Notes: generated by a model from the letters alone, not told the origin. A stretch of 43,192 bases of DNA from a bacterium (GCA_021813945.1 JAKAJD010000003.1:1-43192); one strand, 5' to 3'. Shown: positions 1 to 17,763, counted from the first letter of the stretch. A program made the numbers and translations.

Positions 1-53
1 CAGATCATTGAAGACAACTGTTTGGAATGATAAAATCACACTTGAATTTATAT

Positions 54-125
54 TCCCCGGTGGCGCAACGGTAGCGCGGCGAGCTGTTAACTCGAAGGCT
101 GTAGGTTCGAATCCTACCCGGGGAG
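54..125 (+). tRNA. tRNA-Asn (anticodon GTT), CCA not encoded (followed by CAA)
   Basis: Cloverleaf read directly: acceptor stem TCCCCGG(54-60)/CCGGGGA(118-124), discriminator G125, D stem GCGC/GCGC, anticodon loop CT-GTT-AA (GTT at 86-88), T arm GTAGG-TTCGAAT-CCTAC. Confidence 0.97.
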
Positions 126-1802
126 CAAAGGTGCTAAATTTGAAAAGTTTAAGGCTGTTTGGCTTGTGCTATCAGCCTTTTCTTTAGGTTCGAACATTGG
201 AGATATTTCCGGTACTTCTTGTATTGCTTCTTCAATAAACATTAACGGTTTTTCCAAATCAACACGCACAATTTTGTCTTTTAGAATAAGGTTCGAACCA
301 AGAGCAGCCAGAATCTCCCTTTTCTCTTCTCTTGTTCCGTTTTTGAACCAATGTCTGGCATGGCAAGCGAAGTTAAAAGTCTTTTCTGTCTGTGTAAACA
401 ATTTATTGACTCTATTGTCAGTATCCACGAGCTTTTCTTGCAAGGAGTCTTTTTCTATCAAAAGTGCCTCTTTTTGCGCTTTAAATTCCTCGTCTGTTAA
501 TAATGATCCATCTACATTCTGAGGGGAAATTTTGAGTTTAACTAGATTATCGATGCGTTTTAAGCAATTCTGGTATGTGTTTTGTAAAGAATCGACAATT
601 GAGCTCCTGTCTTCTATTTCTTTGTCAGTTACTTCATTAAGGTACTTAATTGCCCAATCTTTGAACTTTTCTGAAATTTGTATTTTTTCAAGCAGTTGAT
701 CTATTTGTTCTTCCAGGGTTTCTTTCCTAATGCTTCCCTGAGTACATTTCGGATTTTTCCTTTTTGTGCAGTGGTAGTAAATATAGTGTAAAAGTTTGGG
801 CTGGTGCATATTCTCAATTTTTATCTTGCAGTATGGGCACGACACCTTATTATTGGATGAAAATTTCTGGTTGCAAGCCGAGCAAATAATTTGCCATTTC
901 TCCTCGGCCGTTATTGCTGCGTTGCATTCGCCGCATTTTAGGAGACCGACGTAATCAAAGCTATTGGTTTTGGGTCTAGGGCTATCTGTTCGACCTACCA
1001 ATTTTTGAACCCGTTCGAATTCCTCTTTCGTGATCATTGGCTCATGTTTGCCCTTATGCCACTCTCCGCTTCCAGCAGGGTATTCGAAGTATCCATAATA
1101 GAAAGGGTCTGTAAACAGGCGGTAGATTGCACTTCGAGTCATAGGTTTGCCTCCTAACTTTTTGTGTTTTGGTGTTCGATAGCCCCATTCATTGTTAAGC
1201 TTTTCTAGGATTTGTGGTGGGGTATAAGCGCCAGTTATTATCAGCTCCCACGCTTTTCTGATTAGGTTAAAACTGGCAGGATCTTTCTTAATTGTTTTGC
1301 TACCCTTTTCTGCGTATTTATCGTTCATATAGCCTGGCTTTGCTCCGCTAGGGAGCCAGCCATTTTGAGCTTTTTGCTTAAGACCGCGTTTAACATTTTT
1401 GGAAAGGTCGTCAACAAACTTTTGAGCCATACCGAACTCGATATACATAAGGATGCTATTTTCATTAGTCTGGTTAAAGGTTTGGGCTGGCGTCACAATA
1501 TCTATTCCTTGCTCCTTTAATGCCCAAATAATAGAGCCACCGTCAACAGGGTTTCTTGCAAGCCTGTCTAGCTTCCAACAAAGGACGCCTTGGGCTTCTC
1601 CGGATAAAACCTTGGTCATCATTTCAGCGAATACAGGTCTTCCAGGCGCTTTTGCTGATTGTGATTCGGTAAATGTATGAGTAACTTTGATATGAAGCTT
1701 GCTTGCCAACTCCTTTAGCTCTCTTACTTGGGAATCGATTGAAAGTATTTGTCTGTCCTCAGACTCGCTTGATTTTCTTGCGTAGATGAAATATTTACTC
1801 AT
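114..1802 (-). CDS. Large serine recombinase (Int1); stop codon lies inside the tRNA (antisense)
   Basis: N-terminal YARKS catalytic Ser, DRLARN motif, recombinase domain, Zn ribbon (CGEC...CSAC...CPYC...YYHCT), coiled coil; ends LLPG*, the reverse complement of the tRNA 3' end. Confidence 0.95.
   Translation of the reverse strand: MSKYFIYARKSSESEDRQILSIDSQVRELKELASKLHIKVTHTFTESQSAKAPGRPVFAEMMTKVLSGEAQGVLCWKLDRLARNPVDGGSIIWALKEQGIDIVTPAQTFNQTNENSILMYIEFGMAQKFVDDLSKNVKRGLKQKAQNGWLPSGAKPGYMNDKYAEKGSKTIKKDPASFNLIRKAWELIITGAYTPPQILEKLNNEWGYRTPKHKKLGGKPMTRSAIYRLFTDPFYYGYFEYPAGSGEWHKGKHEPMITKEEFERVQKLVGRTDSPRPKTNSFDYVGLLKCGECNAAITAEEKWQIICSACNQKFSSNNKVSCPYCKIKIENMHQPKLLHYIYYHCTKRKNPKCTQGSIRKETLEEQIDQLLEKIQISEKFKDWAIKYLNEVTDKEIEDRSSIVDSLQNTYQNCLKRIDNLVKLKISPQNVDGSLLTDEEFKAQKEALLIEKDSLQEKLVDTDNRVNKLFTQTEKTFNFACHARHWFKNGTREEKREILAALGSNLILKDKIVRVDLEKPLMFIEEAIQEVPEISPMFEPKEKADSTSQTALNFSNLAPLLPG
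122..126 (+). other. attL core (GGAGC) at the tRNA 3' end
   Basis: GAGC recurs at 7130-7133 and 17682-17685 in the same orientation and the same codon phase (CTC = Leu on the minus strand) relative to the recombinase ORFs. Confidence 0.8.
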
Positions 1803-1824
1803 ATCTTAACTCTATTTTTTACGT

Positions 1825-1835
1825 GACTTATAGTC
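1825..1835. promoter_or_regulatory. Single C-box-like operator GACTTATAGTC upstream of int1
   Basis: Palindrome GACT-TAT-AGTC 23-33 bp upstream of the int1 start; matches the paired boxes at 3895-3920. Confidence 0.7.
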
Positions 1836-2313
1836 AACTAAGTGATTTCTTCAGCGCTAACTCTCTCGATTTCTCCTTGAGTTCTTTAATTCTCTTATTT
1901 CTTCTTTCTTCAATAGATTCGTTTTGTTCTGCCCCCTGAGCAAACTGTTCAGCCAATTGAACATGTTCTTCAGTACTGTGATCAGTATTTTCGTATGTCT
2001 GAACCAAATACGTTTCGTCATAAACATAAAGAATAGTCCTTGAAATTCTTTTTATATAACCTTTTTTAATGAGTGACTTTGTATATCCTGATAGTTTTCC
2101 TATCGACCAGTTTGGAAGCAATATGCTCTTGATTTCTCGATAGGAAAGATTAAACGTACGATAATGTCTACTTTTTGAAAAGTAGTTTGCTAATAGTCGA
2201 TATAGTCTTAAGAGTCTGACTTCGGGATCTAATAGGTGAGTTTCGACTAACAAAAGCTTTTTGTGTTCCCGAACGAATCCATTGAAGTTCACGTCTTCTA
2301 TTGTCATTTTCAT
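1834..2313 (-). CDS. Winged-helix DNA-binding protein (Rep N-terminal-like)
   Basis: LSYREIKSIL...SIGKLSGYTKSLIKKGYIKR pattern resembles a wHTH; located directly upstream of the LSR. Confidence 0.6.
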   Translation of the reverse strand: MKMTIEDVNFNGFVREHKKLLLVETHLLDPEVRLLRLYRLLANYFSKSRHYRTFNLSYREIKSILLPNWSIGKLSGYTKSLIKKGYIKRISRTILYVYDETYLVQTYENTDHSTEEHVQLAEQFAQGAEQNESIEERRNKRIKELKEKSRELALKKSLS

Positions 2314-2329
2314 TTTAAAGTTTGCCTTA

Positions 2330-2473
2330 TTAGTTCTTGGGTGGCCTATATATGGTTTTAAAAAAATTTAATAGTCTCGAAGCTTTTTCAATTGCTTCAG
2401 CGTTATTTAACCGGATTCCAAACTCTTGGTAATAGATCGTTTTAAATTCTTCCACGGCTTCCGGTGATGGCAC
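2330..2473 (-). CDS. 47-aa microprotein (not in ORF track)
   Basis: Manual translation from GTG 2473: MPSPEAVEEFKTIYYQEFGIRLNNAEAIEKASRLLNFFKTIYRPPKN*; starts immediately after the DUF5659 stop; positional paralog at 10875-11018. Confidence 0.75.
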   Translation of the reverse strand: MPSPEAVEEFKTIYYQEFGIRLNNAEAIEKASRLLNFFKTIYRPPKN

Positions 2474-2474
2474 T

Positions 2475-2723
2475 TTAGCTTTCTGCATATATCCTGGTTT
2501 TTAGTATTTTGATTTGGTTGAAGTATGATTGGGGATCAACTCTGAGTTTCCCTTGCCAGTAATCATCTATCAGCTTATTTAGTTTTGGTGTTTTTTTAAA
2601 ACGGAAGAGAACTTTAGATGGGTTAGATTTATCGATAGAATCTAAAAAGAAGAACAGTGAAATTGCCGAGGCCAAAGCCATATCGTGCGTACTGAACAGC
2701 TCCATACTTTTAGTAATAGTCAT
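2475..2723 (-). CDS. DUF5659-like small protein
   Basis: FSTHDMALASAI...IDKSNPSKVLFRF...YWQGKLRVDPQSYFNQIKILKTRIY; clearly paralogous to 11021-11275. Family name from recall. Confidence 0.75.
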   Translation of the reverse strand: MTITKSMELFSTHDMALASAISLFFFLDSIDKSNPSKVLFRFKKTPKLNKLIDDYWQGKLRVDPQSYFNQIKILKTRIYAES

Positions 2724-2773
2724 ATGGAGTTAATGATAAAAATCGGGAAAGGAAGTAGATATTACACCAATAT

Positions 2774-3394
2774 TTAAATCTTGGTGTTTAAGATATGCTC
2801 TCTGGCTCTACCGCGTTTGGTAATTTCATGTATTTTCTTTTTGTATCTATTTACTTCAGTGCCAACTGTAGAATAGACGGCCTCAAACGGCAGCTTATTC
2901 TCGTATTCATCTGCAATTTGTGAATGCGTTTTGGTTGTTTTTTCTTTTACTAAAGTGTTTTTTAAAGAAACATTTGTTGTTTTTGCTTTTGGCCTAACGG
3001 GCAAAAAACTTAATTTGTAATAAAACTGTTTTTTATTGTTTTTGATAAACGTAAATAATTCGTTTATCTTTATTTGTTCTCTGATGTTGATCTGAATTGA
3101 GGACCCTTGACCTTTGAGCTCTATAGGTTGGTGCTGGGTTTTTGTGGCTGGTGTAATCCGATTATGGAGTATTAAGTTCATAAAAGATGACAACCAAAAT
3201 AATTCCTGGAGATTATATCTTTGAACTAGAATCAAAGCATTTTCAAAGAGTTTCTGTTTTCCTTTTTTGTTTAGAATTTCAGATTCTTTTCTTGCCAACG
3301 GTAGGAAATCTTCGAGGAAGGGGTCAGACTCTAAAAGTTTAAAGAAGTTTATTTCTTCACGAGAAAGCCCTTTGTGATGAATTTTAATTTTCAT
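2774..3394 (-). CDS. Hypothetical Lys-rich protein, possible DNA-binding regulator
   Basis: 206-aa ORF in the same position as 11356-12207 in element B. Confidence 0.65.
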   Translation of the reverse strand: MKIKIHHKGLSREEINFFKLLESDPFLEDFLPLARKESEILNKKGKQKLFENALILVQRYNLQELFWLSSFMNLILHNRITPATKTQHQPIELKGQGSSIQINIREQIKINELFTFIKNNKKQFYYKLSFLPVRPKAKTTNVSLKNTLVKEKTTKTHSQIADEYENKLPFEAVYSTVGTEVNRYKKKIHEITKRGRAREHILNTKI

Positions 3395-3437
3395 TGTAAT
3401 AATTGATGGAAGACAATTATAAACTAAGCGAGAGGTA

Positions 3438-3884
3438 TTATTTTCTAATTTCGTCGAGCTTCTTTTTAACTTGGTATGGTTTGTCTATGTGTGTAAGAAC
3501 AATCTCTTGAAACGTAGTTCCGGCAGTATTAATAAATAGAGAGCCAGTTTTAGTAAGTATTTTGTCAAAAAATTTTTCTGATATTGTTACATCCGTGATC
3601 TTGTTGTAATCAACACTAATGGTGTTTGTAGAAAGAAGGCCCTTATGGACTAGTATTCTTTTATTAGTAAAAGCATACGCATTGGATTTTTTTAGATAAA
3701 AACCATAATAAATTAAGGCTACGATGAATGTTATTAATCCTAGCCCGAATATGAATAATAGGGGAACGGATATTACACCCCAGATAATTAAATATGTTTT
3801 GGAGTAATTACCGGAGACAGAAAATTCGTATAAGACTTTCTCCTTTTCAGATAACACTTTTTGCCAAATGTCTGTGTAAATCAT
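3438..3884 (-). CDS. Membrane protein with bacterial PH (bPH_2) domain
   Basis: N-terminal TM hairpin then YAFTNKRILVHKGLLS...KITDVTISEK...TGSLFINTAG, the typical bPH_2 pattern. Confidence 0.8.
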   Translation of the reverse strand: MIYTDIWQKVLSEKEKVLYEFSVSGNYSKTYLIIWGVISVPLLFIFGLGLITFIVALIYYGFYLKKSNAYAFTNKRILVHKGLLSTNTISVDYNKITDVTISEKFFDKILTKTGSLFINTAGTTFQEIVLTHIDKPYQVKKKLDEIRK

Positions 3885-3890
3885 GGCTAA

Positions 3891-3925
3891 ATGTGACTAA
3901 TAGTCCGTAGACCAATAGTCCACTT
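3891..3925. promoter_or_regulatory. Tandem C-box operator pair
   Basis: ATGT-GACTAATAGTC-CGTA-GACCAATAGTC-CACTT: two GAC(T/C)-N3-AGTC boxes at 3895 and 3910 (15-bp spacing, central GT), just upstream of the XRE gene. Confidence 0.8.
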
Positions 3926-3945
3926 TAGCCCAATTATGGTTTAAA

Positions 3946-4164
3946 GTGGTAAACAAATCAAGTCCGGTTCAAAAAAAGTTTGGTGAGAGAGTACGAAAGA
4001 TAAGAATTAAGGTAGGAATTTCCCAGGAGCAATTAGGTTTTGAGACGGGTTTGGATCGAACGTATATATCTGGGATAGAAAGAGGAACTAGAAATCCTAC
4101 TTTAAAGATAATTTCTAAGATCGCTAAAGCCCTAAAAGTTTCAGCATCAGATTTAATGAAGTAA
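3946..4164 (+). CDS. XRE-family HTH protein, R-M controller (C-protein)-like
   Basis: SQEQLG...LDRTYISGIERGTRNPTL; the LDRTYISGIER recognition helix is typical of C proteins; C-boxes upstream. Confidence 0.9.
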   Translation: MVNKSSPVQKKFGERVRKIRIKVGISQEQLGFETGLDRTYISGIERGTRNPTLKIISKIAKALKVSASDLMK

Positions 4165-4207
4165 AATAATCACAAAAGTTCACCTTTATTCACTTTTTGA
4201 TACCTAA

Positions 4208-4621
4208 ATGAACAATTTATACCAAAGTGCGATAGAGCTTAGGTATGAGGGGTTAACTTATAGAGAAATCTCCGAAAAGCTGGGGAATGGGTTATCCGAA
4301 CTTACACTAAGGCACTATTTTGCTCGCGATGGCCAGTTACACGATACTTATGAGGAGTACGAGGATGATCAGAATAAATTACGATGTAAGGAAGCAAAAA
4401 CACTTCTACGACGAGAGACTATCCATGCTGCCAGGGCTCTAATAAATACTTTAAACAGAGCGGAAGAAAAAGAAGACTACGCTTTGATTTTAAAGGTAGC
4501 AGCAATGATCTTAGATAGAAGCGGACTGCGGATTCCTAAGGATGAGTTAGGTGGAACCGAACCTGGTGATTATGCTGAGCAGAAGGAGACGAGTGAGCTA
4601 ATAAAATCCATTAAATTGTAA
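4208..4621 (+). CDS. HTH protein resembling a phage small terminase subunit
   Basis: N-terminal HTH (GLTYREISEKL...SELTLRHY), helical middle, AAMILDRSG motif seen in TerS-like proteins. Confidence 0.5.
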   Translation: MNNLYQSAIELRYEGLTYREISEKLGNGLSELTLRHYFARDGQLHDTYEEYEDDQNKLRCKEAKTLLRRETIHAARALINTLNRAEEKEDYALILKVAAMILDRSGLRIPKDELGGTEPGDYAEQKETSELIKSIKL

Positions 4622-4769
4622 CAGCACAGATTTTTTGAATAATAAGCTGTTAGCCTCAAAATTGTTAACTTTCATTAACTTTTAACCCTAAAAAACCTGC
4701 TTTTGGATACCGTAAATTTGGCATACTTGTGCGGACCAACTACGCAAACCAGCACAAGATTTAGAGCTT

Positions 4770-5396
4770 CTACAAATGCCTTCTTATTAGACCGGCAAAG
4801 ATTCCTCTTACTTCGAAATATTTTGGATCGACATATATGTTGTTCAACTTCTTGTTCCGAGGTTGTAGCACTACTTGGCCCAAATGATTCACCCCACCGT
4901 AAATTTTTAAAGTGACTTCACCATCTACAACGGCAACGATCATTTCGTTCTGTTGAGGCACTTTTCGATATTTAATTAGGATTATGTCACTATCCCAGAC
5001 GTCGTCTTCAATCATAGAGTCACCTTTTACTTCCAGAGCATAGTAATCTTTTATGTCTCCTTTGATCATGTAGTCTGGCACATCAATGGGTTCGGGATTT
5101 TCAAACGGCTCAATTGGAGGTCCGGCTGCTATTTTTCCGAGAAGGGGTATTTGAATACTCGTTTGATGTGATAAAGAGGTAAATCCACGAGCTAGATTGG
5201 GGAGTTTTTTTATGTGGCCTTTCTTTCTTATGGCCTCAACCATTTCATGAACAGTTGAGACCGCTTTGCCTTCTTGTCTAGCCAGTTCAGAAAGACTGGG
5301 AGCATAACCGTGTTTGCGGTAGTGCGCAACCATTTTGTCTAAAATTTTCTTTTGTATTGGAGTTAATGGTCTTGGTCGAAGGGTATTGACAGTCAT
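4770..5396 (-). CDS. lexA: LexA-family autocleavable repressor (start reassigned to ATG 5396)
   Basis: LTPIQKKIL...GYAPSLSELA N-terminal wHTH; IPLLGKIAAG Ala-Gly cleavage site; GDSM catalytic Ser; VTLK catalytic Lys. Confidence 0.9.
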   Translation of the reverse strand: MTVNTLRPRPLTPIQKKILDKMVAHYRKHGYAPSLSELARQEGKAVSTVHEMVEAIRKKGHIKKLPNLARGFTSLSHQTSIQIPLLGKIAAGPPIEPFENPEPIDVPDYMIKGDIKDYYALEVKGDSMIEDDVWDSDIILIKYRKVPQQNEMIVAVVDGEVTLKIYGGVNHLGQVVLQPRNKKLNNIYVDPKYFEVRGIFAGLIRRHL

Positions 5397-5541
5397 GATT
5401 TGCGCTTGAGATAATATACCCTGAAATCTTCCGAAAGGTAAGATATCAAAAAAATCCGGGGGAAACCGAATTTGTTTGAAGGACGTTAGTCCTTTTAACA
5501 TTTAATCAATAAATCGGCATCCGGTCAAGGTGGTGATAAAA

Positions 5542-5775
5542 ATGCCAGGCAAGAATCAACATGTAGTTCCAGTAGGAAGTGATTGGGGTATTCGTGGAGA
5601 GGGCAATTCTAGACTTACTTCAGTTTTTGAAAATAAACAAGACGCATTAAAGGTAGGTAGGAAGATTGCAATCAACCAACAAGCAGAGCTTGTTATTCAC
5701 GGCCGAGATGGTCGGATCCAAGACAAGGATAGTTTTGGCCACGATCCAGTCCCGCCAAGAGATAAAAAACATTAA
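5542..5775 (+). CDS. DUF2188 family protein (start reassigned to ATG 5542)
   Basis: HVVP...WGIRGEG...F...QDA...ELVIHGRDGRIQ pattern. Confidence 0.85.
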   Translation: MPGKNQHVVPVGSDWGIRGEGNSRLTSVFENKQDALKVGRKIAINQQAELVIHGRDGRIQDKDSFGHDPVPPRDKKH

Positions 5776-5777
5776 AT

Positions 5778-7103
5778 ATGGATATTCTGACCAAGAAAAT
5801 AGAATCATTCGGTTTTGATGATATAGTGACTTTTTGCAAAGAAGGTCACCGAGAAGATTATCAAATTGATTACAAAAAAGATCTTCCTTCGAATGGTTTG
5901 GCAAAGCACTTCGCCGCTTTTTCGAATTCAAAAGGTGGTTTGATCCTAATTGGTGTTGAAGAAAATAGAATCACAGGTATTCCTATTAAGTGGGATGGTG
6001 TGAATAATGATGCGAAGTCGATTGAAAGGATACATCAGTGGGCTTCAAACGTGGAGCCTTTACCGAGAAGCACAGTTCATGTTACTGAAGAGAAAAACGG
6101 AAAGGTTTTTATATTGATTCGAATATTGGAGGGTGATCGAACACCATACTACGTTCAGAACGATTCAAATCTGTGGGTTAGGACTGGAAATATTAGTACT
6201 CCTATTGATCTTGCGTCCCCTGATTATGCAGAGTTGTTATTTAAGAGAAAAGAGCAGGCTGATATCAGCCGCAATATATTTATAAAACAGACAGCCGATG
6301 TTTATAACGCGGCTTTAAGAAGGGCAGAACGAGAACGTTTGGCGAAGATTGCGAAAGAGGCAGAAGATTACAAAAAGAAAAAAGAAGCGGGAGACCCTCA
6401 ACCCATAATAGATGCATTTGCTGGCGGCTTTCATTCCCACATTTATTCAAATAAACTTGGAAGCCAAGCCTCAATGTGTACTATCATTCTACAGCCATTT
6501 TTCCCAAAGGAGGCATTATTAAAGCCTTCTGAAATAAAAGATCGAATAGTTGAAATTAGAGATTTGCAGAGAACTCCCAGAATGTATTTTCCAGATTTAA
6601 ATGTGTGGCCAATACCTCAGGGAATTTTGCGTTTTGATTGGGGGGAAAGTGATGGACAAATTGACTGTCATCAGATTTACGCTTCTGGTTTGGTTTACTC
6701 TTCAACTGATGTTTTGATGGTAGACCATGAATCTAAGAAAAAACTAATTTACTTGTCTCACGTTTTAGGAAGACTATTTCAAGTTTTGAAGGCGGCTAGT
6801 AATTTTTATCAAATTGCCGGATACCAAGGTGGTGTGGAAGGATATCTGGAGCTGGCTAATACTGAGGATATTAGCTTGGTGGGGTTTCAGCATGAGCTTT
6901 TTAACAGAGATTTGCTGGGTTTAATGCCCAGCTACCAACTTAATTTTTCAGATTTAGATACTTCAAAATTAAGTGACCCTAAAGCTTTCCAGGAATTTTT
7001 CGAGAATTATGTTAAAGAATTTTTCTGGTCTATTGGAAAGCCTGACTTGCACGAGTCTCTAATTAAGAAATTTTTGCAAGATAATCAGTGGCTTGTCACG
7101 TAA
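5778..7103 (+). CDS. Schlafen/AlbA_2-domain protein with an unknown C-terminal domain
   Basis: E...IDYKK...KHFAAFSNSKGGLILIGVEE AlbA_2 signature in the first ~150 aa. Confidence 0.85.
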   Translation: MDILTKKIESFGFDDIVTFCKEGHREDYQIDYKKDLPSNGLAKHFAAFSNSKGGLILIGVEENRITGIPIKWDGVNNDAKSIERIHQWASNVEPLPRSTVHVTEEKNGKVFILIRILEGDRTPYYVQNDSNLWVRTGNISTPIDLASPDYAELLFKRKEQADISRNIFIKQTADVYNAALRRAERERLAKIAKEAEDYKKKKEAGDPQPIIDAFAGGFHSHIYSNKLGSQASMCTIILQPFFPKEALLKPSEIKDRIVEIRDLQRTPRMYFPDLNVWPIPQGILRFDWGESDGQIDCHQIYASGLVYSSTDVLMVDHESKKKLIYLSHVLGRLFQVLKAASNFYQIAGYQGGVEGYLELANTEDISLVGFQHELFNRDLLGLMPSYQLNFSDLDTSKLSDPKAFQEFFENYVKEFFWSIGKPDLHESLIKKFLQDNQWLVT

Positions 7104-8698: not shown

Positions 8699-8724
8699 AT
8701 TTTTATAGTTATTTTTAGTATATT

Positions 8725-8754
8725 GATACTATCAAGTAATGTCAACTAATATCA
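8725..8754 (+). promoter_or_regulatory. 10-bp tandem direct repeats upstream of int2
   Basis: GATACTATCA-AGTAATGTCA-ACTAATATCA; the same unit occurs at 12273-12292. Confidence 0.65.
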
Positions 8755-10882: not shown

Positions 10883-11018
10883 AGTTGATTTTTATTAGTA
10901 GTTCAAAAAACATAACCAGAGAATTTCCAATTTCAGATAGTTCGGATGGAGTTAAACTAACTCCGTAATCCTCTTCAATAATAGTCTTGAGCTCTTGTAA
11001 TAGTTGTTGACTAACCAT
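10875..11018 (-). CDS. 47-aa microprotein (not in ORF track)
   Basis: Manual translation: MVSQQLLQELKTIIEEDYGVSLTPSELSEIGNSLVMFFELLIKINYE*; overlaps the next start codon; similar to 2330-2473. Confidence 0.8.
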   Translation of the reverse strand: MVSQQLLQELKTIIEEDYGVSLTPSELSEIGNSLVMFFELLIKINYE

Positions 11019-11020
11019 AG

Positions 11021-11275
11021 CTATCTTTCTCCGTAAATCCTCCCTTTAATTACCTTGAGCTGGTTAAAGTAAGCCAAAGGCTCGACTCTGACCTCTCTTC
11101 GCCAAAAAGACTCAATAAGCTCATCGAGTTGTTCGTTGCGTTGGAACAGAAAACTAACTTTGTGAGGAGAGGTTCTGTCTATCGAATCAATAGGAAACCA
11201 AAGTGATATAGCAGTAGCCAACGGGAGACTTTGTGTGGAGTAAATAGTATCCAGTTTTATGTTTTCTTGGCTCAT
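11021..11275 (-). CDS. DUF5659-like small protein
   Basis: YSTQSLPLATAI...IDRTSPHKVSFLF...FWRREVRVEPLAYFNQLKVIKGRIY; paralog of 2475-2723. Confidence 0.78.
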   Translation of the reverse strand: MSQENIKLDTIYSTQSLPLATAISLWFPIDSIDRTSPHKVSFLFQRNEQLDELIESFWRREVRVEPLAYFNQLKVIKGRIYGER

Positions 11276-11355
11276 ACTTATGCAAATAAAAAAGCTCTGA
11301 ACTTTTACATCCAGAGCTTACCAAGTGAGCCTCTTGAAATTGTGACACTAATTTT

Positions 11356-12207
11356 TCATTTTTTGTGTAGTAGAAGTCTTGCTCGCTCTTTTAATCGTTG
11401 TTTTTGTTTACGCACGACTTGACTCCTTTTACCAGTATTATCATTAAATATTCTGGTTGCTAAGTCTGTCGAGGTAACCTTGTGGTGCTCTTCCTCACCC
11501 CCAAGCCCTCTTGCAAAATCGAACCGGTGTTCAATCTGTCCCATTTTTCTTGTTTTCAAAGCCGTATCAAGAGTGCGGAAACGCCTGCGTATATTTTTGC
11601 TTCTTTTTAGAATTTCTTTAAGCTCTCTATATGCCTGTCTAAACTTGGGTTTTGGTATTTGCGGGTTATTTCCGACTATTCCTTTAAAGCAGGCGAGAAT
11701 AAATTTTTTCTCTTGAGTGGTAAGCACAAACCTTTCTATTTCGTCAACGTGGTTTATTACTTGGTTAATAAGTTCGAAGTTATAGGAGGGAATATATGAT
11801 GGTTTGCCATAAAGTAGATAGTCTTGTACCCAATCGTAAAAATTCAGTGGCAATTTATACTCTTGTATAAGGTCAGTAATCGTTTTTTCAAGCATTTCCC
11901 GTTTCGCGGGTGGCAATGATTCTAGCCAGTCGTGTACTTCGATGTCTACGCTCCTGCCTTCGTACTCAATTTGTATGGTTTTAAAATCATGATTGGGGTT
12001 CAGACTGGGGATTTTAAATTGTGTTTGTATATCTCGGATTTCCGCGTTAAACTTCTTATCCCGTTTAAGATAAGTCGCAATCTCCTCATTTAGATTGCTT
12101 CGCACTCCAAAGAATTTTTCGGCTTCACGCCACAAACTTATTTGAATTAGAGTGCCAATGGGAGAAAGTTTCTTTAATGTATTGATGTGTTTTTTCTTTA
12201 ATCTCAT
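11356..12207 (-). CDS. Hypothetical protein with a basic C-terminus
   Basis: 283-aa ORF, first gene of the leftward backbone operon. Confidence 0.7.
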   Translation of the reverse strand: MRLKKKHINTLKKLSPIGTLIQISLWREAEKFFGVRSNLNEEIATYLKRDKKFNAEIRDIQTQFKIPSLNPNHDFKTIQIEYEGRSVDIEVHDWLESLPPAKREMLEKTITDLIQEYKLPLNFYDWVQDYLLYGKPSYIPSYNFELINQVINHVDEIERFVLTTQEKKFILACFKGIVGNNPQIPKPKFRQAYRELKEILKRSKNIRRRFRTLDTALKTRKMGQIEHRFDFARGLGGEEEHHKVTSTDLATRIFNDNTGKRSQVVRKQKQRLKERARLLLHKK

Positions 12208-12225
12208 TCTTATGTTTATACTTCG

Positions 12226-12242
12226 GTTTACCCGAAAAGTCG
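12226..12242 (+). repeat. Element B dispersed motif, copy 2
   Basis: GTTTACCCGAAAAGTCG, 16/17 identical to 17561-17577; in the divergent promoter region. Confidence 0.75.
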
Positions 12243-12272
12243 GTTAATTGATTTAGCCTGGTGATAGTGTAT

Positions 12273-12292
12273 ACTAATATCAAGTAATATCA
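12273..12292 (+). promoter_or_regulatory. 10-bp tandem direct repeats upstream of the excisionase-like gene
   Basis: ACTAATATCA-AGTAATATCA, ending 11 bp before ATG 12304; TATCAAGTAAT(A/G)TCAA is 15/16 identical to 8730-8745. Confidence 0.65.
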
Positions 12293-12303
12293 AAGAATAA
12301 TTT

Positions 12304-12489
12304 ATGAAAAAAGACAATAGCGAAGGTTTAATTAAGCTTAGCGAGGCATGTAAGATTCTGAATGTTCACCCCCAAACGCTCCGGCAGTGGGATAGAAAAG
12401 GGATTCTAAAAGCTGTGAGGTTTGGACAAAGAGGTGATAGGAGATATAGAAAGGAAGATATCTTAAAATTAATTGGCAAAAAAACTTAG
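12304..12489 (+). CDS. MerR-type HTH, excisionase/RDF-like
   Basis: LIKLSEACKILNVHPQTLRQWDRKG...GDRRYRKEDI. Confidence 0.9.
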   Translation: MKKDNSEGLIKLSEACKILNVHPQTLRQWDRKGILKAVRFGQRGDRRYRKEDILKLIGKKT

Positions 12490-12491
12490 TT

Positions 12492-12908
12492 ATGAATCTA
12501 AATATTAAGGAATTCTTGTCGTCAAGCCTTGTAGATGCAGTAAAAAGGCTTGGCATAGTTGGGACGATTTCTTATGTAGGAGCTGCCACTGTTTTCGTTG
12601 TTCTCCTTTTGGTCAATTTTAATGCGGAACCTGTAAAAGCTGGCGTGTTGTTAAGCATAGGCGTTGCCTTGTTAATGTACTCAGGAGCAATCTATTGGTC
12701 TGAAACAAAACAAGAAACCGAGAAAATGAAGGAGGCTTTAGGAGTTCTGCGTGAGGTATATAACCGTATGGCCGAACAAATATCAACAGCAGATAAAGAT
12801 AAAACCGTTTCAATAACCATGACTATTGATAACCTGCCAGATAAAATTGCAGAGGTTATTAAGAAGACTTCAATTCAAGGAAAAGAAAGTCATGAAACAA
12901 AAAAATAA
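12492..12908 (+). CDS. Two-TM membrane protein with coiled-coil tail
   Basis: Two hydrophobic segments followed by a charged helical region. Confidence 0.7.
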   Translation: MNLNIKEFLSSSLVDAVKRLGIVGTISYVGAATVFVVLLLVNFNAEPVKAGVLLSIGVALLMYSGAIYWSETKQETEKMKEALGVLREVYNRMAEQISTADKDKTVSITMTIDNLPDKIAEVIKKTSIQGKESHETKK

Positions 12909-13635
12909 ATTTGCATTAGTTACAGGAGCATCCACAGGCATCGGTAGAGCAATTGCTATTGAATTAGCAAAATCAGGTGTTTATGTTGGATTGGTTGCTC
13001 GAACTGAGGATAGACTAAAAATAACTAAAAAATTAATTGAACAAGGAGGTGGTCAAGTTGAAATCTTCATTGCTGATTTGAGCAGAGTTGAGTCGATAAA
13101 TAACTTAATTTTTCAAGTTAAAAACAAAACGAAAAAGATTAGTATTTTAATAAACGTTGCTGGAATATGGCATGGAGACGATGAGGTATTTGCGGATAAA
13201 GATTTTGATACCTTTTCCCAGAAAGTAATTCTTGATACTTATCATGTTGGCATGATTGCCCCTACCTTACTTGCTCACGCTCTCATACCCTTAATGCTAA
13301 GGGGTAGCAGAATAATAAACATTTCAGGTACTTTTGAAAGTGGTGCTAAGGGATGGCTACCTTACTTTGTATCAAAGAAAGCAATAGAAGACTTGACCAT
13401 CGGTTTGGCTGAGGAGTTGAAAGACAAAGGCATAACAGCCAATGCTATTTCTCCTTCTGATACTGCTACGGAAGCCTACAAAAAGTATTTTCCTCAGTAT
13501 ATGGCAGAGGCTATTGAACCAGAAGAAATCGCCAAATTTGCAGTATATTTGTGCTCACCTCAGGCAAGTGACATTTCGGGTAAAGTGTTTGTGTTGAAAA
13601 AGGGCAAACAACCTTTTGAGGGATATCATACTTAA
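12892..13635 (+). CDS. Short-chain dehydrogenase/reductase (start reassigned to ATG 12892)
   Basis: TGASTGIG glycine-rich motif, NVAG, YFVSK catalytic YxxxK. Confidence 0.92.
   Translation: MKQKNKFALVTGASTGIGRAIAIELAKSGVYVGLVARTEDRLKITKKLIEQGGGQVEIFIADLSRVESINNLIFQVKNKTKKISILINVAGIWHGDDEVFADKDFDTFSQKVILDTYHVGMIAPTLLAHALIPLMLRGSRIINISGTFESGAKGWLPYFVSKKAIEDLTIGLAEELKDKGITANAISPSDTATEAYKKYFPQYMAEAIEPEEIAKFAVYLCSPQASDISGKVFVLKKGKQPFEGYHT
13570..13584 (-). repeat. Element B dispersed motif, copy 3 (inside the SDR gene)
   Basis: GACATTTCGGGTAAA, a 15-bp exact match to the reverse complement of 17562-17576. Confidence 0.7.
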
Positions 13636-13653
13636 GAAAATAAAAAAAGCATT

Positions 13654-14121
13654 ATGGCAAGTAGAGATAGAGATGAAGATAAACTTCGCAAAAGGCTTGT
13701 TTCAGCATTAAGAGAAATCTTAACAAAGAATGACCCCGAACTTTTAGTTGAAGAAGTACACGGCGTTGGGGAGCATGGATTAGATATTATTTTTCTCGCT
13801 CGTGATTACTCCGGAGAAAAACATTGCTTCGGAATACAAGTAAAAGCAGTTAATATTTCCTGTCAGGGACACCCTACGAAGGATGTTAAAGAGATAATAG
13901 GGCAACTTACTATCGCAACAGGTTACGATTATAAATTCCAAGCAGATAATACCTATGAGTTTAGTGGCTTTTATGTTGTGACAGACAAAGAAGTTTCCGA
14001 AGTAGCAAAAAAGTATATCTCGTCGGCATTCAAACACGGAAAGCCAATTTACTATTTGTACGGCTCAAGATTGGAGAAGTTTCTACTAGACAACGAAAAT
14101 AAAAACATAACAAAACCATGA
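13654..14121 (+). CDS. Mrr-like PD-(D/E)xK restriction endonuclease-fold protein
   Basis: GEHGLDII...FGIQVK motif (D...QxK), FYVVT strand; 155 aa, stand-alone. Confidence 0.8.
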   Translation: MASRDRDEDKLRKRLVSALREILTKNDPELLVEEVHGVGEHGLDIIFLARDYSGEKHCFGIQVKAVNISCQGHPTKDVKEIIGQLTIATGYDYKFQADNTYEFSGFYVVTDKEVSEVAKKYISSAFKHGKPIYYLYGSRLEKFLLDNENKNITKP

Positions 14122-16295
14122 AAATAAAATTTGAATTTAAAGACGACAAGAGTAACCCTACGGAACAAGTAAAAGCATTCATCGCATACTGGCTGGAAGA
14201 ACATGGTATCAGAGATGAGGTAAAAGTATTATCCCCAGAAAAAATTTTGGGTAAAGGAGCAGACTATTTTGTTATAAATTCTGGACTTCTAATTGAAGCG
14301 ACCCAGTTGATTGACAATGAAGATTTAGCTAGGAGTGCTAAGTGGGCTATTACGGTAAATACTCTAAGCAAATTAATTAAAGAAGATAGCAGATTTTCTT
14401 CGATTAAAGGATTGCATTCTATTTCTACACCAGAAAACTTCGGTCTTAAAGCATCGCAACTAAAAAACGAGTCTGTATTAAATACAAAGATAAGTAAGGC
14501 TGTTGACGACATAATTAAAGCAATTTTGTCTAAAAGACCAGAAGTGGATGTATTTGGATATAAACTAAGAGTTGAAAAAGTTAACGAGGTTGACGATGGT
14601 ATTTATTTCTCAACCATAGGAAGAGCGAGGTCTATTAGTGTAGCAGGAATTTTCCATGAGAATTTGAGGAAAAAATTTGACAAGGCCAATACACAGCTTG
14701 GGATAGAAGAAATTGATGGAGCCAAGGTTAAGAGCAGAGTGCTTCTAATTGTAAATAAATATCGTTTGCTAACTTTCGATTGGGATTTATTTGAGGGACT
14801 CAGTTATTCATATAAAGAGCTAGTCGAGAAATACAGCAACATCAGCGAGATTTGGTTTCAAGCTGAAGACGGGGAAGGTAAATATCAGCATAAGTTGCTT
14901 TACAGAAAGGCTATCTTTACGCAGTTTGAAAACATGGATTTCTCAAATATGAACAGCCAAGATTACGAGGTCTTCGCAAAGTGGTTTTCAGCGCTTGAGA
15001 AATTAGATGATAATAAAAAACAAATCTTAATCGAGGCTCTTAAAATTCTATTAAAAAGACACTCACCTCATAAAATCTTTCCTGACCCCCAGACGAGAAT
15101 TGAAATGGTAAGGTATGGAAGATGGCTTGCCGAGAACAACAAAAGGAATGACGCAAACTGGCTGATAAAGCAATTTCTTAACGACCCTGACCCAAGCGAC
15201 CCCCCAACTGGGGACAAAAAAGATTATGGTAATGAGTTGCATGAAAGCATTAAGAAAGCAACTAAATCTGATATACATGCGATACATACTGTAAAAGGTC
15301 ATTTGGCATGGACTGTTCAATTGCTATCACTAAAAAAAGATTTTCTTCTCAAAGAGTCTTATGGTTATACACAAGGGGTGCTAAGAAGTACTAAGCACTT
15401 ATATTTAATCCTTCAGTGGATATTCCCACTAATCGAAATATCTAATAGACGATTCTGGTTAAAGGAACTCGATGAAAAACTTTATGAAGATTTTAGGAAG
15501 CTATGCTTTGAGCTTCTTGAGTCTTATTCAAAATATCCTGATATAGCAAAAGGGTTAGTTCATGTTTTTCATTACTTCAAGGAATTAACCACAGAGGAGA
15601 CTAAAGAAGTACTAAATAAACTTGAGAAAGCCGATGATTATGAAACGTTACTTCTTTATTTTGCAATATACAGAGAAAAGCACTTCAAAGAGGAAAAATA
15701 CAATAAAGAGATTAGAGATTACAATCCTACATATGCAAAGAAAAAACTTGAAGAGACGATATTAAATGACGATAACGGACTTCTCAATCTGCGTTCGGGA
15801 ATAGCTTGGAATATTTGGAAGATACTATCAGAGGATGAAAAAGAGCTTGAAACCCTTATCCCATTAATAGACAGTTTTTTAACAAGCCCTTACGATGGTC
15901 ATCTTTTTCACAATTTTGAGAGAATTGTTGAGGAGTATATTGATAAATTCCCAGAGAAAAGTATCACATGGTTTATACAAATAATTAAAGCTGCGAAACT
16001 GTATTTAGACAAAAAACCTGACGAAGGCAGAAACGTGTGGTTAAGCACCGAAATAGGAAAAGTATTAAGGAAAACAGCAGAGAAAAAACCCGAGCAACTG
16101 CTGGTACTAATAGAACTTCTATATGAAATGTGGATGAAAGGAGCGTTCGTGGGAACTATATCAGAGATTTTTACTTCGTATAAATTTATTGATAACAAAG
16201 AGCTTAGATTACAACTGGAAGGTAAGTTCAAGGAAATTTACTTTCGAATGAAAAAAGTGAATGAGAAACTTGAAAACGTAGATTGGTCTGAGTAA
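14118..16295 (+). CDS. 725-aa protein: possible N-terminal nuclease-like domain plus long alpha-helical C-terminus
   Basis: GADYF-x6-IEAT near the N-terminus resembles a PD-(D/E)xK-type centre; the C-terminal ~450 aa looks helical-repeat-like; ATGA overlap with the upstream nuclease gene. Confidence 0.7.
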   Translation: MKIKFEFKDDKSNPTEQVKAFIAYWLEEHGIRDEVKVLSPEKILGKGADYFVINSGLLIEATQLIDNEDLARSAKWAITVNTLSKLIKEDSRFSSIKGLHSISTPENFGLKASQLKNESVLNTKISKAVDDIIKAILSKRPEVDVFGYKLRVEKVNEVDDGIYFSTIGRARSISVAGIFHENLRKKFDKANTQLGIEEIDGAKVKSRVLLIVNKYRLLTFDWDLFEGLSYSYKELVEKYSNISEIWFQAEDGEGKYQHKLLYRKAIFTQFENMDFSNMNSQDYEVFAKWFSALEKLDDNKKQILIEALKILLKRHSPHKIFPDPQTRIEMVRYGRWLAENNKRNDANWLIKQFLNDPDPSDPPTGDKKDYGNELHESIKKATKSDIHAIHTVKGHLAWTVQLLSLKKDFLLKESYGYTQGVLRSTKHLYLILQWIFPLIEISNRRFWLKELDEKLYEDFRKLCFELLESYSKYPDIAKGLVHVFHYFKELTTEETKEVLNKLEKADDYETLLLYFAIYREKHFKEEKYNKEIRDYNPTYAKKKLEETILNDDNGLLNLRSGIAWNIWKILSEDEKELETLIPLIDSFLTSPYDGHLFHNFERIVEEYIDKFPEKSITWFIQIIKAAKLYLDKKPDEGRNVWLSTEIGKVLRKTAEKKPEQLLVLIELLYEMWMKGAFVGTISEIFTSYKFIDNKELRLQLEGKFKEIYFRMKKVNEKLENVDWSE

Positions 16296-16303
16296 TTATC
16301 GAC

Positions 16304-16317
16304 TTTACCTAAATGTC
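16304..16317 (+). repeat. Element B dispersed motif, degenerate copy 4
   Basis: TTTACCTAAATGTC versus TTTACCCGAAATGTC. Confidence 0.45.
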
Positions 16318-16325
16318 AGAGGGGA

Positions 16326-16535
16326 TTATTTTTCAAACAATTGAGCTAATTCTATTTCAAGAGCACGAGCAATCTTAGTGAGAGTTTTTAGGGTTGGATT
16401 TCTTTTTCCACTTTCTATATCCACAATCGAACGAGCTTCGATTTTTGTAAGCTCCGCTAATTTTTCCTGAGTCATATCCTTCTCTTTCCGTAACCTTTTT
16501 ATCCGTTCGCCTACTTTTTTGTAAGTCCCAATCAT
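16326..16535 (-). CDS. XRE-family HTH regulator
   Basis: GERIKRLRKEKDMTQEKLAE...IESGKRNPTLKTL. Confidence 0.9.
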   Translation of the reverse strand: MIGTYKKVGERIKRLRKEKDMTQEKLAELTKIEARSIVDIESGKRNPTLKTLTKIARALEIELAQLFEK

Positions 16536-16549
16536 ATTGACTAAAGTGT

Positions 16550-16615
16550 GAAATATATGTAAGATTTAAACCAGGAAATATATTTCGGATTTTTATTAAA
16601 ATAGACTGAAATATA
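16550..16615. promoter_or_regulatory. Candidate XRE operators (GAAATATA x3)
   Basis: GAAATATA at 16550, 16575 and 16608; 16575-16586 is the perfect palindrome GAAATATATTTC; lies in the divergent promoter region. Confidence 0.55.
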
Positions 16616-16676
16616 GGCATAAAAAGAATAAAAAATACTTTGGATTAAACAACCAAAAGATTAATAAAAACTACTT

Positions 16677-17027
16677 ATGAATAGAACTTTTAGCGGTACA
16701 CGATTTTTAAAACTATTTCAAATAATTTCAGCCTCATCCATTCTAATTGCTGTGTTAGCTCTTTTAGCTTCTAAATATTCTCTCCCCGTGGCATTTAGTA
16801 GTTATGAAAGAAAGCAACAATATTGTTATGACAAATACTGGAATGTAAGTATGCCAACGTACGCTTCCTGTTTTAGAAGGGAAGCAGACTACTGGTCTTT
16901 CTGGATTCAAGTAGAAGAAAAATCTCCTAGAATTCTTGTAGCTGTATTAGGTATCAATTTACTTGGATTTGGCTTATACAGATTTTTGTTTCCGCGTAGC
17001 CATAGAAGTCTGCATGCTGAAGCATAA
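16677..17027 (+). CDS. Small membrane protein with a Cys pair
   Basis: TM - loop (YCYD...ASCF) - TM. Confidence 0.6.
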   Translation: MNRTFSGTRFLKLFQIISASSILIAVLALLASKYSLPVAFSSYERKQQYCYDKYWNVSMPTYASCFRREADYWSFWIQVEEKSPRILVAVLGINLLGFGLYRFLFPRSHRSLHAEA

Positions 17028-17028
17028 T

Positions 17029-17208
17029 ATGATTAACTTAATTTACCGCATTCTCTATCTTTATACATTCGCATTTGCGTATTTTATTTCCATCGCCTTG
17101 CTGTATGAAACAGTATTTAACGGATGGAAACCATGGGGGCTGACGCTGTTATTGCCGGTTGATTTGTTCCTGATTCTCGTTTTTATCAACCGCCGGAAAA
17201 AAGCATGA
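17029..17208 (+). CDS. 59-aa two-TM protein (start reassigned to ATG 17029)
   Basis: Hydrophobic, basic C-terminus; starts 1 nt after the previous stop. Confidence 0.5.
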   Translation: MINLIYRILYLYTFAFAYFISIALLYETVFNGWKPWGLTLLLPVDLFLILVFINRRKKA

Positions 17209-17560
17209 TAAGTAATGATTACAGTCATACTACTGTAGTAATACAGTAATACTTATAGTGTGTGGTACGACACATTAAACACATAAAAATATGCTGCAAA
17301 GTGTGTAAGTAATTAACCCCCGTATTTCCAAATAGCCTCAAAAATAGATGTTTTTCGTGATACCCCCATTGATACTCACTGTTACTTTTATGTATACATG
17401 TATATGTGCTGCATGATACTTTATGATGATTTTTGTGATGACAAGTTATGACTTTATGATGTCTTGTTTTACCTGCGGTGTGCGGATATTGACCTGAAGG
17501 TTGAACAGGTTTGAGCAACTTGAAGTAGTAGTACCCTCCCTCGTCAAATTATGAAACTGA

Positions 17561-17577
17561 GTTTACCCGAAATGTCG
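17561..17577 (+). repeat. Element B dispersed motif, copy 5
   Basis: GTTTACCCGAAATGTCG, about 105 bp inside the right end. Confidence 0.75.
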
Positions 17578-17582
17578 AAAGA

Positions 17583-17687
17583 CTAATAGGTAGATAAGAA
17601 GTATTGTGATTGTTTAAGCGTAAGCTCAGGATATTCAACCTCCTCTGACCAATTCACTCGTCTAAATTCGTCCCACTTGGCGAGCCA
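17583..17687 (-). other. Orphan recombinase C-terminal coding segment
   Basis: Translates WLAKWDEFRRVNWSEEVEYPELTLKQSQYFLSTY*; in-frame stop three codons upstream (17694-17696) and no start; in phase with both LSRs across the GAGC core. Confidence 0.8.
17669..17687 (+). other. attR of the tandem array
   Basis: CGTCCCACTTGGC-GA-GCCA; joining the tRNA at GA restores ...CCGGGGAG-CCA. Confidence 0.85.
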
Positions 17688-17763
17688 TTCGACTCACCCT
17701 GTTCGCTCATGGCTATAGCCGCTAACTACTTGAGTCGAATGTCTTGAGTGAGTCATGAGCGAA
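17686..17763. repeat. Interleaved inverted repeats (REP-like) upstream of the GIY-YIG gene
   Basis: CATTCGACTCA(17686-96)/TGAGTCGAATG(17731-41); TTCGCTCATG(17702-11)/CATGAGCGAA(17754-63); palindrome GGCTATAGCC(17711-20). Confidence 0.8.

Follow-up and report, generated by a model that had tools for sequence, protein, structure and literature searches.

This account concerns a stretch of 43,192 nt (GCA_021813945.1 JAKAJD010000003.1:1-43192; hereafter the window) from an uncultured Patescibacteria bacterium, Microgenomates-like and from mine drainage, and in particular the two genomic islands, A and B, that follow one another at the 3′ end of its tRNA-Asn gene, each with a large serine recombinase (LSR) of its own. 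The window starts 53 nt upstream of this gene, tRNA-Asn(GTT) (54-125/126, plus strand; ARAGORN, and 67.3 bits with Rfam RF00005), which is the integration target and is present in single copy in this bacterium. Island A (125-7131; 7,007 bp) carries the recombinase Int1, and island B (7132-17683; 10,552 bp) carries Int2. The locus had been described before from its DNA alone, and this sequence-only reading proposed two islands stacked at tRNA-Asn, with a legible order of arrival and several possible excision products. Its statements on the position of the tRNA, on the GCAA and GCCA arm starts, on the in-frame recombinase tails and on the symmetry of the arms were all reproduced by ARAGORN, by translation and by a symmetry count. 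Pfam assignments and junction sequences likewise confirm two independent LSR islands with three co-oriented crossover sites.

Junctions and recombinases at tRNA-Asn

The three co-oriented junctions have GAGC in common, and each is centered on GA. The first, J1, is attL of island A (101-150, plus strand): it reads ATCCTACCCGGG-GA-GCAAAGGTGCTA (GA-GCAAAGG), with GA at 123-124, and passes from the tRNA half-site into the P′ arm of A, GCAAAGGTGCTAAATTTGAAAAG. In this state the tRNA-Asn gene is left without an encoded CCA (GAGCAAA). The second, J2, is both attR of A and the left junction of B (7105-7160, plus strand): it reads CTCTACTAGGCG-GA-GCCAAATAGGAC (also written GCCAAATAGG), with GA at 7130-7131, and is composed of the P arm of A, GA, and the P′ arm of B, GCCAAATAGGACGCTCAAGG. 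The third, J3, is attR of B (17655-17710, plus strand): it reads GTCCCACTTGGC-GA-GCCATTCGACTC, with GA at 17682-17683, where the P arm of B is followed by the chromosomal B′ arm, GCCATTCGACTC. The left arm of A thus starts with GCAA, and that of B with GCCA. Cores of 4-6 nt would be trivial by themselves; as read from these sequences, it is the junction set that exceeds chance. In the 43-kb window, on both strands, the pattern GGCG.?AGC[CA]A matches J2 and J3 alone, there are two LSR genes in all, and the same junction architecture is found in more than 100 related loci.

Both recombinase genes are on the minus strand and end across a junction, J1 for Int1 and J2 for Int2. Int1 (114-1802, minus strand) has 562 aa as integrated, and its end and stop (LPG*) come from the antisense of the tRNA. 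Int2 (7085-8698, minus strand) has 537 aa as integrated, of which residues 523-537 are supplied by island A; its homology to relatives breaks off at about residue 523-524. Resolvase, Recombinase and Zn_ribbon_recom domains are present in both: the resolvase catalytic domain PF00239 is matched at 7e-24 in Int1 and 1e-20 in Int2, and PF07508 and PF13408 are found in both proteins, the zinc ribbon of Int2 falling just under the Pfam cut-off. The residues R8-V9-S10-S11 are invariant across 21 family members, Int1 having YARKSSES and Int2 CRVSSKEQ. The two proteins are 27% identical and share the C-terminal stretch FEPKEK..T.QT, of which F-E is invariant throughout this family. This stretch is encoded by a 40-nt DNA repeat (155-194 and 7162-7201), 83% identical, whose copies lie 7,007 bp apart, the very size of island A; the repeat also holds TAGGTTCGAA, identical to the tRNA T arm, at 60-70 nt from the crossover, and may represent either a motif of the protein or an accessory site in the DNA.

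Sequence searches against the PDB gave matches confined to the LSR catalytic domain; therefore, a fold search was needed for the rest. The AlphaFold model of the homologue P0069, with long helices at 337-454, can be aligned along its whole length with the structures of the SPbeta, Bxb1, phiC31 and LI integrases (E 2.5e-19 to 1e-11). By their domains, and by the predicted fold of this family member, Int1, Int2 and their relatives are genuine LSRs.

Where does the crossover take place within the shared bases? Symmetry was scored as the number of identical positions between two arms in the 22 nt nearest to GA, counted outward, with random 22-mers from the window as the null (mean 5.8 matches; 11 or more with P = 0.017). 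The arms of B match at 12 of 22 positions (11 of the inner 13), P(B) and P′(A) at 11 of 22, and P(A) and P′(A) at 8 of 22. The attP of B, when reconstructed as CGTCCCACTTGGC-GA-GCCAAATAGGACG, is a near-perfect inverted repeat over its inner part (11/13). This symmetry points to GA as the probable crossover dinucleotide. The acceptor and T arm of tRNA-Asn would then act as the B half-site, with the last two acceptor bases, G123-A124, as the dinucleotide.

The motifs within the arms tell the two kinds of site apart. In the tRNA arm, TTCGAACC (the T loop) is at +12..19, while the corresponding positions are +17..24 for TTAGAACC in P(A) and +17..22 for TTAGAC in P(B); by inspection, [CA]GAAC is at +19..23 in the P arms and CGAAC at +14..18 in the tRNA arm. 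The same outer motif, at the same offset, was seen by inspection in the equivalent arms of seven related loci (L069, L071, L075, L097, L099, L182 and L183). The inner motif [GA]T[AG]GGA, at +6..11, keeps its position in the tRNA arm and in both B arms. Compared with attB, the attP sites of LSRs have their zinc-ribbon motif displaced outward by 5 bp (PMC3783163). This displacement is present at the right ends of both islands, which are therefore genuine LSR P arms.

The relatives of Int1 and Int2 reveal that the arrangement is not peculiar to this genome. Species-representative genomes were scanned with Int2 and Int1, which returned 56 and 61 loci, respectively, nearly all in metagenome-assembled genomes of Patescibacteria. 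Among the 126 distinct LSR genes of these 117 loci, 74 run up to a convergent tRNA gene, which is tRNA-Asn in 43 cases, and 70 of these 74 have their stop codon within it. As a rule, then, the elements of this clade integrate at a tRNA 3′ end and their LSR gene reads into the tRNA. Int1 and Int2, distant as they are, have the same specificity, both families being found at tRNA-Asn, where some 12 Int1-family relatives have a GAGCA... junction like J1; more distant Int1 relatives use tRNA Gln, Met, Ser, Gly, Trp and others. At L063, L069, L073, L097, L126, L127/128, L132, L141, L147 and L165, two or three LSR islands, only distantly related to one another, are stacked in the same orientation. 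With about ten such loci, stacking is a recurrent outcome; either LSR type can adjoin the tRNA, and the internal junctions are formed like J2.

A separate observation regards the target itself. In several Patescibacteria metagenome-assembled genomes, the tRNA-Asn genes targeted by Int2-like LSRs have a group I intron in the anticodon loop (L065 11615-11831, L067 11609-11828 and L083 11609-11893; RF00028, 62-77 bits). The observation also takes in L070, L091, L102, L105 and L110, and insertions of 160-630 nt are present at this place in five more loci. Because of these introns and insertions, ARAGORN misses the genes concerned.

Taken together, the locus very probably represents the tandem accretion, at the 3′ end of tRNA-Asn(GTT), of two integrative elements with unrelated cargo, each having its own LSR. 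In the mechanism proposed, each LSR would bind attP (P-GA-P′, formed by the two ends of the element) and attB (the tRNA acceptor and T arm plus the downstream sequence), cut at GA, and insert the element so that its LSR gene runs into the tRNA. B would have entered first, at TCCTACCCGGG-GA-GCCATTCGACTC, and the encoded CCA would have been kept (GAGCCA). A would have come later, at the only junction still holding the tRNA half-site (tRNA plus the P′ arm of B), with removal of the encoded CCA (GAGCAAA).

Mobility of A, constancy of B, and order of arrival

Is any of this movement still taking place? The population data available are the assembled Logan contigs (k = 31) of four mine-drainage DNA runs, X1-X4, from one study. 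In all four, the k-mer depth of A is about half that of B and of both flanks. In X1, A has a depth of 8.7-10.2, B of 17.6, and the flanks of 19.5 and 18.6; in X2, the corresponding values are 11.3-14.4, 26.6, and 32.5 and 30, and X3 and X4 have the same ratio. In addition, a 3,263-nt contig of X2 contains the right part of A as far as 7133, followed by window positions 127-151, and reads ...CTACTAGGCGGAGC|AAAGGTGCTAAATTTGAAAAGTTTA. The two sides of this joint share only the 5 nt GGAGC; therefore, a k = 31 graph needs real reads to produce it. The same joint limits the crossover of A to GGAGC. It is the attP of A, present on a free circle or in an A-A tandem. Island A is thus polymorphic and currently mobile, and about half of the genomes lack it. 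The contigs of the runs yielded no second haplotype of A at or above 90% identity. As for B, every contig with the GIY-YIG gene of the right flank also carries this island, and J3 has no break or loose end in the four runs: B is fixed.

These data overturn one claim of the sequence-only reading, namely that independent excision of A was the least supported outcome, given its weakly symmetric attP. The weak symmetry is confirmed by the count given above, but the only recombinant junction in public data is that of A itself (..7133|127..151, in X2). Of the three circles that had been envisaged (A, B and A+B), the joint of A is seen; those of B and of A+B were not found in contigs or in protein look-ups.

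Could the X2 joint come from a head-to-tail duplication of A in the chromosome? In this run, the attL(A) k-mers have a depth of ~7, with the flank at 32.5, and A itself has roughly double this depth (~14), a ratio that fits one circle per integrated copy and a dimer alike. However, a tandem dimer of an LSR element needs itself attP × attL/attR recombination or the re-integration of a circle, so that a circle is implied anyway, and A is at half depth also in the other three runs, where no such joint is seen. A standing duplication is hence considered distinctly improbable as the source of the joint.

Another possibility is that A and B form one composite element that moves as a unit, with J2 as a relic. 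The symmetry of P(B) with P′(A) exceeds that of the arms of A, and all complete contigs carry A and B together. Nevertheless, the depths of A and B differ two-fold in four samples, the one joint observed belongs to A, and no break or joint occurs at J3. The look-ups with exact proteins (the flank gene and both integrases) returned only contigs with A+B or with B and the flank, but the one with Int2 is biased toward A+B because Int2, as encoded here, contains the tail supplied by A. Moreover, the 592-aa form of Int1 that an A+B circle would encode is absent from the protein collection. A composite element is very hard to reconcile with these facts and we give it next to no weight.

The question of which island arrived first is more delicate. 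The sequence-only reading held that B came first and that the junctions and the CCA reveal it. B first is indeed likely, but not on those grounds: with the crossover inside GAGC, both orders predict the same three junctions and the same attPs. The polymorphism of A is equally uninformative, since loss of A by excision produces it under either order. B does keep the encoded CCA and A removes it, but all Int1-family junctions remove it, so that its loss is tolerated. Other arguments favor B. Only the tRNA-proximal junction keeps a tRNA half-site with attB spacing, the right arm of a resident element having the spacing of attP. The downstream half-site must be loosely read, given the variety of hosts, and hence of flanking sequences, in which such enzymes act. 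Finally, B is constant while the tRNA-proximal slot varies.

This last point is illustrated by X2. Here the 11.6-kb contig of B, which has 2 substitutions with respect to the window, continues leftward into 13 nt (TCTTAAATATGTA) and TACTAGGCGGAGC, in place of the GTTCTAACGTTCT and CTACTAGGCGGAGC of A (window 7108-7133). This left neighbor (ATATGTATACTAGGCGGAGC) is similar to the right arm that the Int1-type island has in L069, which suggests that another Int1-type island fills the tRNA-proximal slot in the dominant X2 strain.

What of the reverse order, with A entering the empty tRNA site and B then using the tRNA-like P arm in attR of A? The identity of the junctions and attPs under both orders leaves room for it, as do the mimicry of the tRNA arm by the P arms and the polymorphism of A. 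Yet the zinc-ribbon motif in the P arm of A is at the attP position (+5) and not at that of attB; a fixed B next to a variable slot (A, or the other Int1-type arm in X2) requires two independent insertions of B in near-identical genomes; and the observed J1 × J2 excision is canonical only if the P′ arm of B was the original B′ arm of A. The reverse order therefore appears unlikely, and arrival of B followed by A is the probable sequence of events. With B as the first comer, J1 × J2 would be the only canonical attL × attR pair, so that B would leave cleanly only after A has gone, when its attL would consist of the tRNA and P′(B). A circle of A+B would require a mixed Int1/Int2 synapse or cross-recognition, and is unlikely.

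Several points weigh against this picture of B first and a mobile A. The order of arrival is something that we infer. The joint of A is documented by one contig of one run, from contigs and not raw reads, in which circle and A-A tandem are indistinguishable. The arms of A have weak symmetry, and no recognizable directionality factor is found among its genes. The joint expected between tRNA and B after excision (GGGGAGC|CAAATAGG) is in no contig, although the tangle of tRNA k-mers may conceal it (the k-mer depth of the tRNA 3′ half reaches about 1,100-1,150) or graph cleaning may have deleted it, so that its absence is uninformative. In the half of the population that has no A, the tRNA is expected either to adjoin B directly or to be followed by another Int1-type island ending ...ATATGTATACTAGGCGGAGC. 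Lastly, four hypothetical proteins with alternative tails are all absent from the protein collection.

The search for the other alleles was broader than this. The empty site as rebuilt from the arms is consistent with the sequence, but the allele itself was not found in relatives or in metagenome contigs. More generally, the empty site, the B-only allele, the B circle and the A+B circle were found neither in the contigs nor by cluster look-ups (one member per protein cluster), by a scan of metagenome contigs with the left end of B (0 matches), or by the look-up of alternative tails. A second search for runs returned the same study only, whose RNA runs contain none of the sequence. A synteny search with the PEP-utilizer protein of the flank gave a best match of 66% protein identity with no tRNA-Asn nearby, and no close relative in the genome collection; hence, no empty site is available for comparison.

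Some irregularities in the contigs were considered and set aside. The breaks at 6764-6792 in X1 and 6847-6872 in X3 had been candidates for a variant of A; there is no alternative path at these places, and they are assembly breaks. The loose end GAGCAAA|AATAAAACGTCCATATGGCG... of X1 and X4 does not count as another allele: a stop interrupts its LSR frame, and it is terminator-like and likely belongs to the tRNA-Asn of another organism. A different contig, found in X3 and X4, joins the tRNA end (100-127) to 32 nt matching 1303-1334 in Int1, followed by GC-rich, unrelated sequence (GAGGGGCGCTGGCGCAGG...); this 127→1303 joint may be a remnant LSR beside the tRNA-Asn of another organism.

A recombinase gene that spans its own attachment site

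Besides the stack, the locus has a second feature: in both families, the LSR reading frame passes through the crossover, at a CTC codon (the complement of GAG). What lies beyond the crossover becomes the C-terminus of the enzyme, and every combination of arms is in frame. The sequence-only reading had described this tail as in frame and dependent on the junction, and this is borne out: joined to the arm of B, Int1 continues as ...NLAPLLAKWDEFRR..., exactly as stated there, and joined to the arm of A as ...LLRLVENVRTSYVTSH*. The right end, or P arm, of A (7085-7132, minus strand) encodes in frame L-RLVENVRTSYVTSH*, the native tail of Int1 (574 aa on the circle). It is only 15 residues long and is presently read by Int2; its class, xVxxVRT, recurs in L069, where the right end of a further Int1-type island supplies it. 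The right end of B, comprising the P arm and beyond (17583-17684, minus strand), codes in frame for L-AKWDEFRRVNWSEEVEYPELTLKQSQYFLSTY*, with which Int2 is natively completed (555 aa on the circle). Since the native tails are encoded by the right ends of the islands, full-length genes (Int1 of 574 aa and Int2 of 555 aa) are, at the level of sequence, present on excised circles only. An LSR copy integrated beside the tRNA ends after 2-12 tRNA-encoded residues, and the distal LSR of a stack reads the tail of its neighbor, as Int2 does here.

The 555-aa circle form of Int2, used as a query, has more than 1,840 homologues at E ≤ 1e-30. Among the top 120 homologues listed, about one in six cover 98-100% of the query and the rest end at 94-95%, that is, at the crossover. 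Most of the 21 full-length homologues retrieved share a tail of about 35 residues, ..W[DN][DE]FRT[LF][KR]W..[IV]..PEL...Q.K.LL, which that of B matches, and a few differ (e.g., P0024); three of the 21 are flanked on either side by element genes, on contigs that have no tRNA.

Does the tail have a role in the protein? In-frame tails might have none, their conservation being due to a constraint on the DNA of a tRNA-like P arm and the frames beyond it being accidental. In keeping with this, the first ~8 residues of the tail (W-D-D/E-F-R-T) overlap with the P half-site and echo W-D-S-N as encoded by the tRNA, the tail of A is just 15 residues long, and the tails belong to several unrelated classes. 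On the other side, the conservation of ..W..I..PEL...Q.K.LL extends beyond any LSR half-site: in at least 20 homologues at 50-60% overall identity, it reaches 18-30 residues (54-90 nt) past the crossover. The comparison of the tail of B with that of L075 over 30 codons gives 9 identical, 6 synonymous and 15 non-synonymous codons, so that synonymous codons are used at 6 of the 15 conserved residues, and the tail is predicted to form short helices after a disordered linker (predicted local distance difference test, pLDDT, 72-77). A DNA-level explanation is thus possible for the first residues of the tail and does not extend easily to the rest; as an account of the whole tail, it has a real chance of being right, somewhat below even.

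The alternative is that the split gene is a built-in sensor of state. The activity, stability or directionality of the enzyme would depend on its tail, which would report whether the element is free or integrated, and the excision of a stack would be hierarchical (last in, first out). We offer this as a tentative idea, with the odds against it. Should the tail prove functional, the split gene would be the feature of higher interest.

Cargo, flank, and comparison with known systems

The cargo of A (1834-7103) consists of a 159-aa unknown protein adjacent to Int1, a DUF5659 protein (2475-2723), a 206-aa unknown protein, a bacterial PH domain protein (3438-3884), an XRE-type helix-turn-helix (HTH) protein (3946-4164), a 137-aa unknown protein, a LexA/S24-type repressor (4770-5501), a DUF2188 protein (5530-5775) and a Schlafen/AlbA_2 protein (5778-7103). 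Around the XRE gene, A has structural variants in the population: one contig of X2 skips 3926-4118, which deletes most of this gene; X1 and X3 have a 38-nt backward joint, 3925→3888; and foreign sequence flanks the shared segment 3888-3925 in X2 and X4. In X3 and X4, the depth drops over 3805-5072.

The cargo of B (8752-17027) comprises a 68-aa protein, a 431-aa protein with a C-terminal winged HTH, a CHC2 zinc-finger primase-like protein (10247-10882), a DUF5659 protein, a 283-aa protein, a MerR/excisionase-like HTH_17 protein (12304-12489), a short-chain dehydrogenase, unknown proteins of 155 and 725 aa, an XRE HTH protein (16326-16535) and a 116-aa membrane protein. Excision by LSRs requires a separate recombination directionality factor, and such factors are not known to share a common fold. 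The HTH_17 protein of B, which matches PHROG 66 at 9e-9, is a candidate for this role.

What type of elements are these islands? Neither has a match to capsid, portal, tail or terminase proteins in PHROGs or Pfam, no relatives occur among the IMG/VR viral contigs, and PADLOC detects no known defense system in the cargo. Pfam assignments of A and B include no relaxase, oriT, coupling or type IV secretion genes; however, many cargo proteins have no family, and the islands may yet be mobilizable. Elsewhere in the family, the full-length, tail-bearing Int2 homologue P0103 is found in elements of ~23 kb from several samples (L178-L181), together with an M23 peptidase of 983 aa, a NosD/beta-helix protein, Phage_rep_O, HTH_36 and TraG/TrwB-like coupling proteins; part of the LSR clade would thus appear to drive conjugative or plasmid-like elements.

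To the right of B, the chromosome resumes (17686-18053, plus strand) with a hairpin immediately after the crossover (17686-17742) and a small GIY-YIG gene (17769-18053; Pfam). The hairpin (CAUUCGACUCA...UGAGUCGAAUG) folds with -36.7 kcal/mol (z = -3.6) and lacks both a U tract and an Rfam match; in the empty site, it probably forms the native structure downstream of tRNA-Asn-CCA. Further on, an open reading frame region (18351-19072) contains a perfect 38-nt tandem duplication (18672-18747; TTTGTGTTTGGAGCTGCGAACGCTTTCCTGTACACCCT twice), exactly where the Logan contigs break (60-nt unitig 18680-18739). This could reflect a copy-number or frameshift variant of a gene for a membrane protein.

The significance of the locus goes beyond its own two islands. 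It leads to a large undescribed family of LSRs, the homologues counted above, which act at tRNA 3′ ends, follow the geometry known for LSR att sites and have attP in their reading frame. LSRs are the enzymes of choice for the insertion of large DNA into genomes, and the control of their direction is an active question. The family offers natural attP/attB pairs for many orthogonal enzymes, and the contrast between full-length and integration-truncated enzyme is an idea that can be put to the test. The mobile elements of Patescibacteria are poorly known; here tRNA-Asn is a hot spot for the accretion and turnover of small islands in a natural population. In the limited collection of literature searched, nothing was found on LSR-tRNA islands in Patescibacteria, nor on an LSR gene spanning its own attP.

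How does the locus compare with systems already described? The target is unusual for a serine enzyme, since integration at tRNA 3′ ends is typical of tyrosine integrases. Tandem accretion involving integrative and conjugative elements (ICEs), integrative and mobilizable elements (IMEs) and cis-mobilizable elements (CIMEs) at one target gene is known from streptococci and others (PMC5704250). The likeness is close: co-oriented elements at one target, distantly related integrases of the same specificity, a newcomer that enters the att site of the resident, and complex excision patterns. The differences here are that both enzymes are LSRs, the host belongs to the Patescibacteria, the islands are of only 7-10 kb with no relaxase, oriT or secretion genes found, and the integrase genes span the junctions. 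Tandem accretion with complex excision and the geometry of LSR att sites being known already, the stack alone is an ordinary example of accretion.

Serine-recombinase islands stacked at one chromosomal site are also familiar from the composite islands of the staphylococcal cassette chromosome mec (SCCmec) and the arginine catabolic mobile element (ACME) at rlmH (orfX). These are moved by Ccr serine recombinases and their units excise singly or jointly; the ccr genes lie inside the cassette, the direct repeats are of ~15-20 bp, and the target is the end of a protein gene. Here, in contrast, the target is a tRNA, the LSR gene spans the att site, and a probable 2-bp core lies within imperfect inverted arms. 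The phage LSRs (LI/A118, Bxb1, phiC31, SPbeta) have in common with Int1 and Int2 the domains, the fold, short att sites with a central dinucleotide (here probably GA), and the 5-bp shift of the attP motif; the islands differ from them in the tRNA 3′ end as target, in having no virion genes and no relatives on viral contigs, and in an attP placed inside the integrase coding sequence.

This last property has its nearest parallels among tyrosine systems. The archaeal integrase of the SSV1 type is split by its own attP into two large parts, and in the integration-dependent immunity of the mycobacteriophages BPs and Brujita, the split gene in BPs is that of the repressor. In all of these, attP lies within a gene of the element and integration alters the C-terminus of the product, an alteration that serves as a genetic switch. 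The present case, read from sequence, concerns a serine recombinase that loses or swaps its last 15-35 residues only. Finally, Tn4451/Tn4453 are LSR elements in which the joint of the circle creates a promoter for the recombinase, TnpX. There, as here, the circle junction would alter the expression of the recombinase; in islands A and B, the joint would instead complete its coding sequence.

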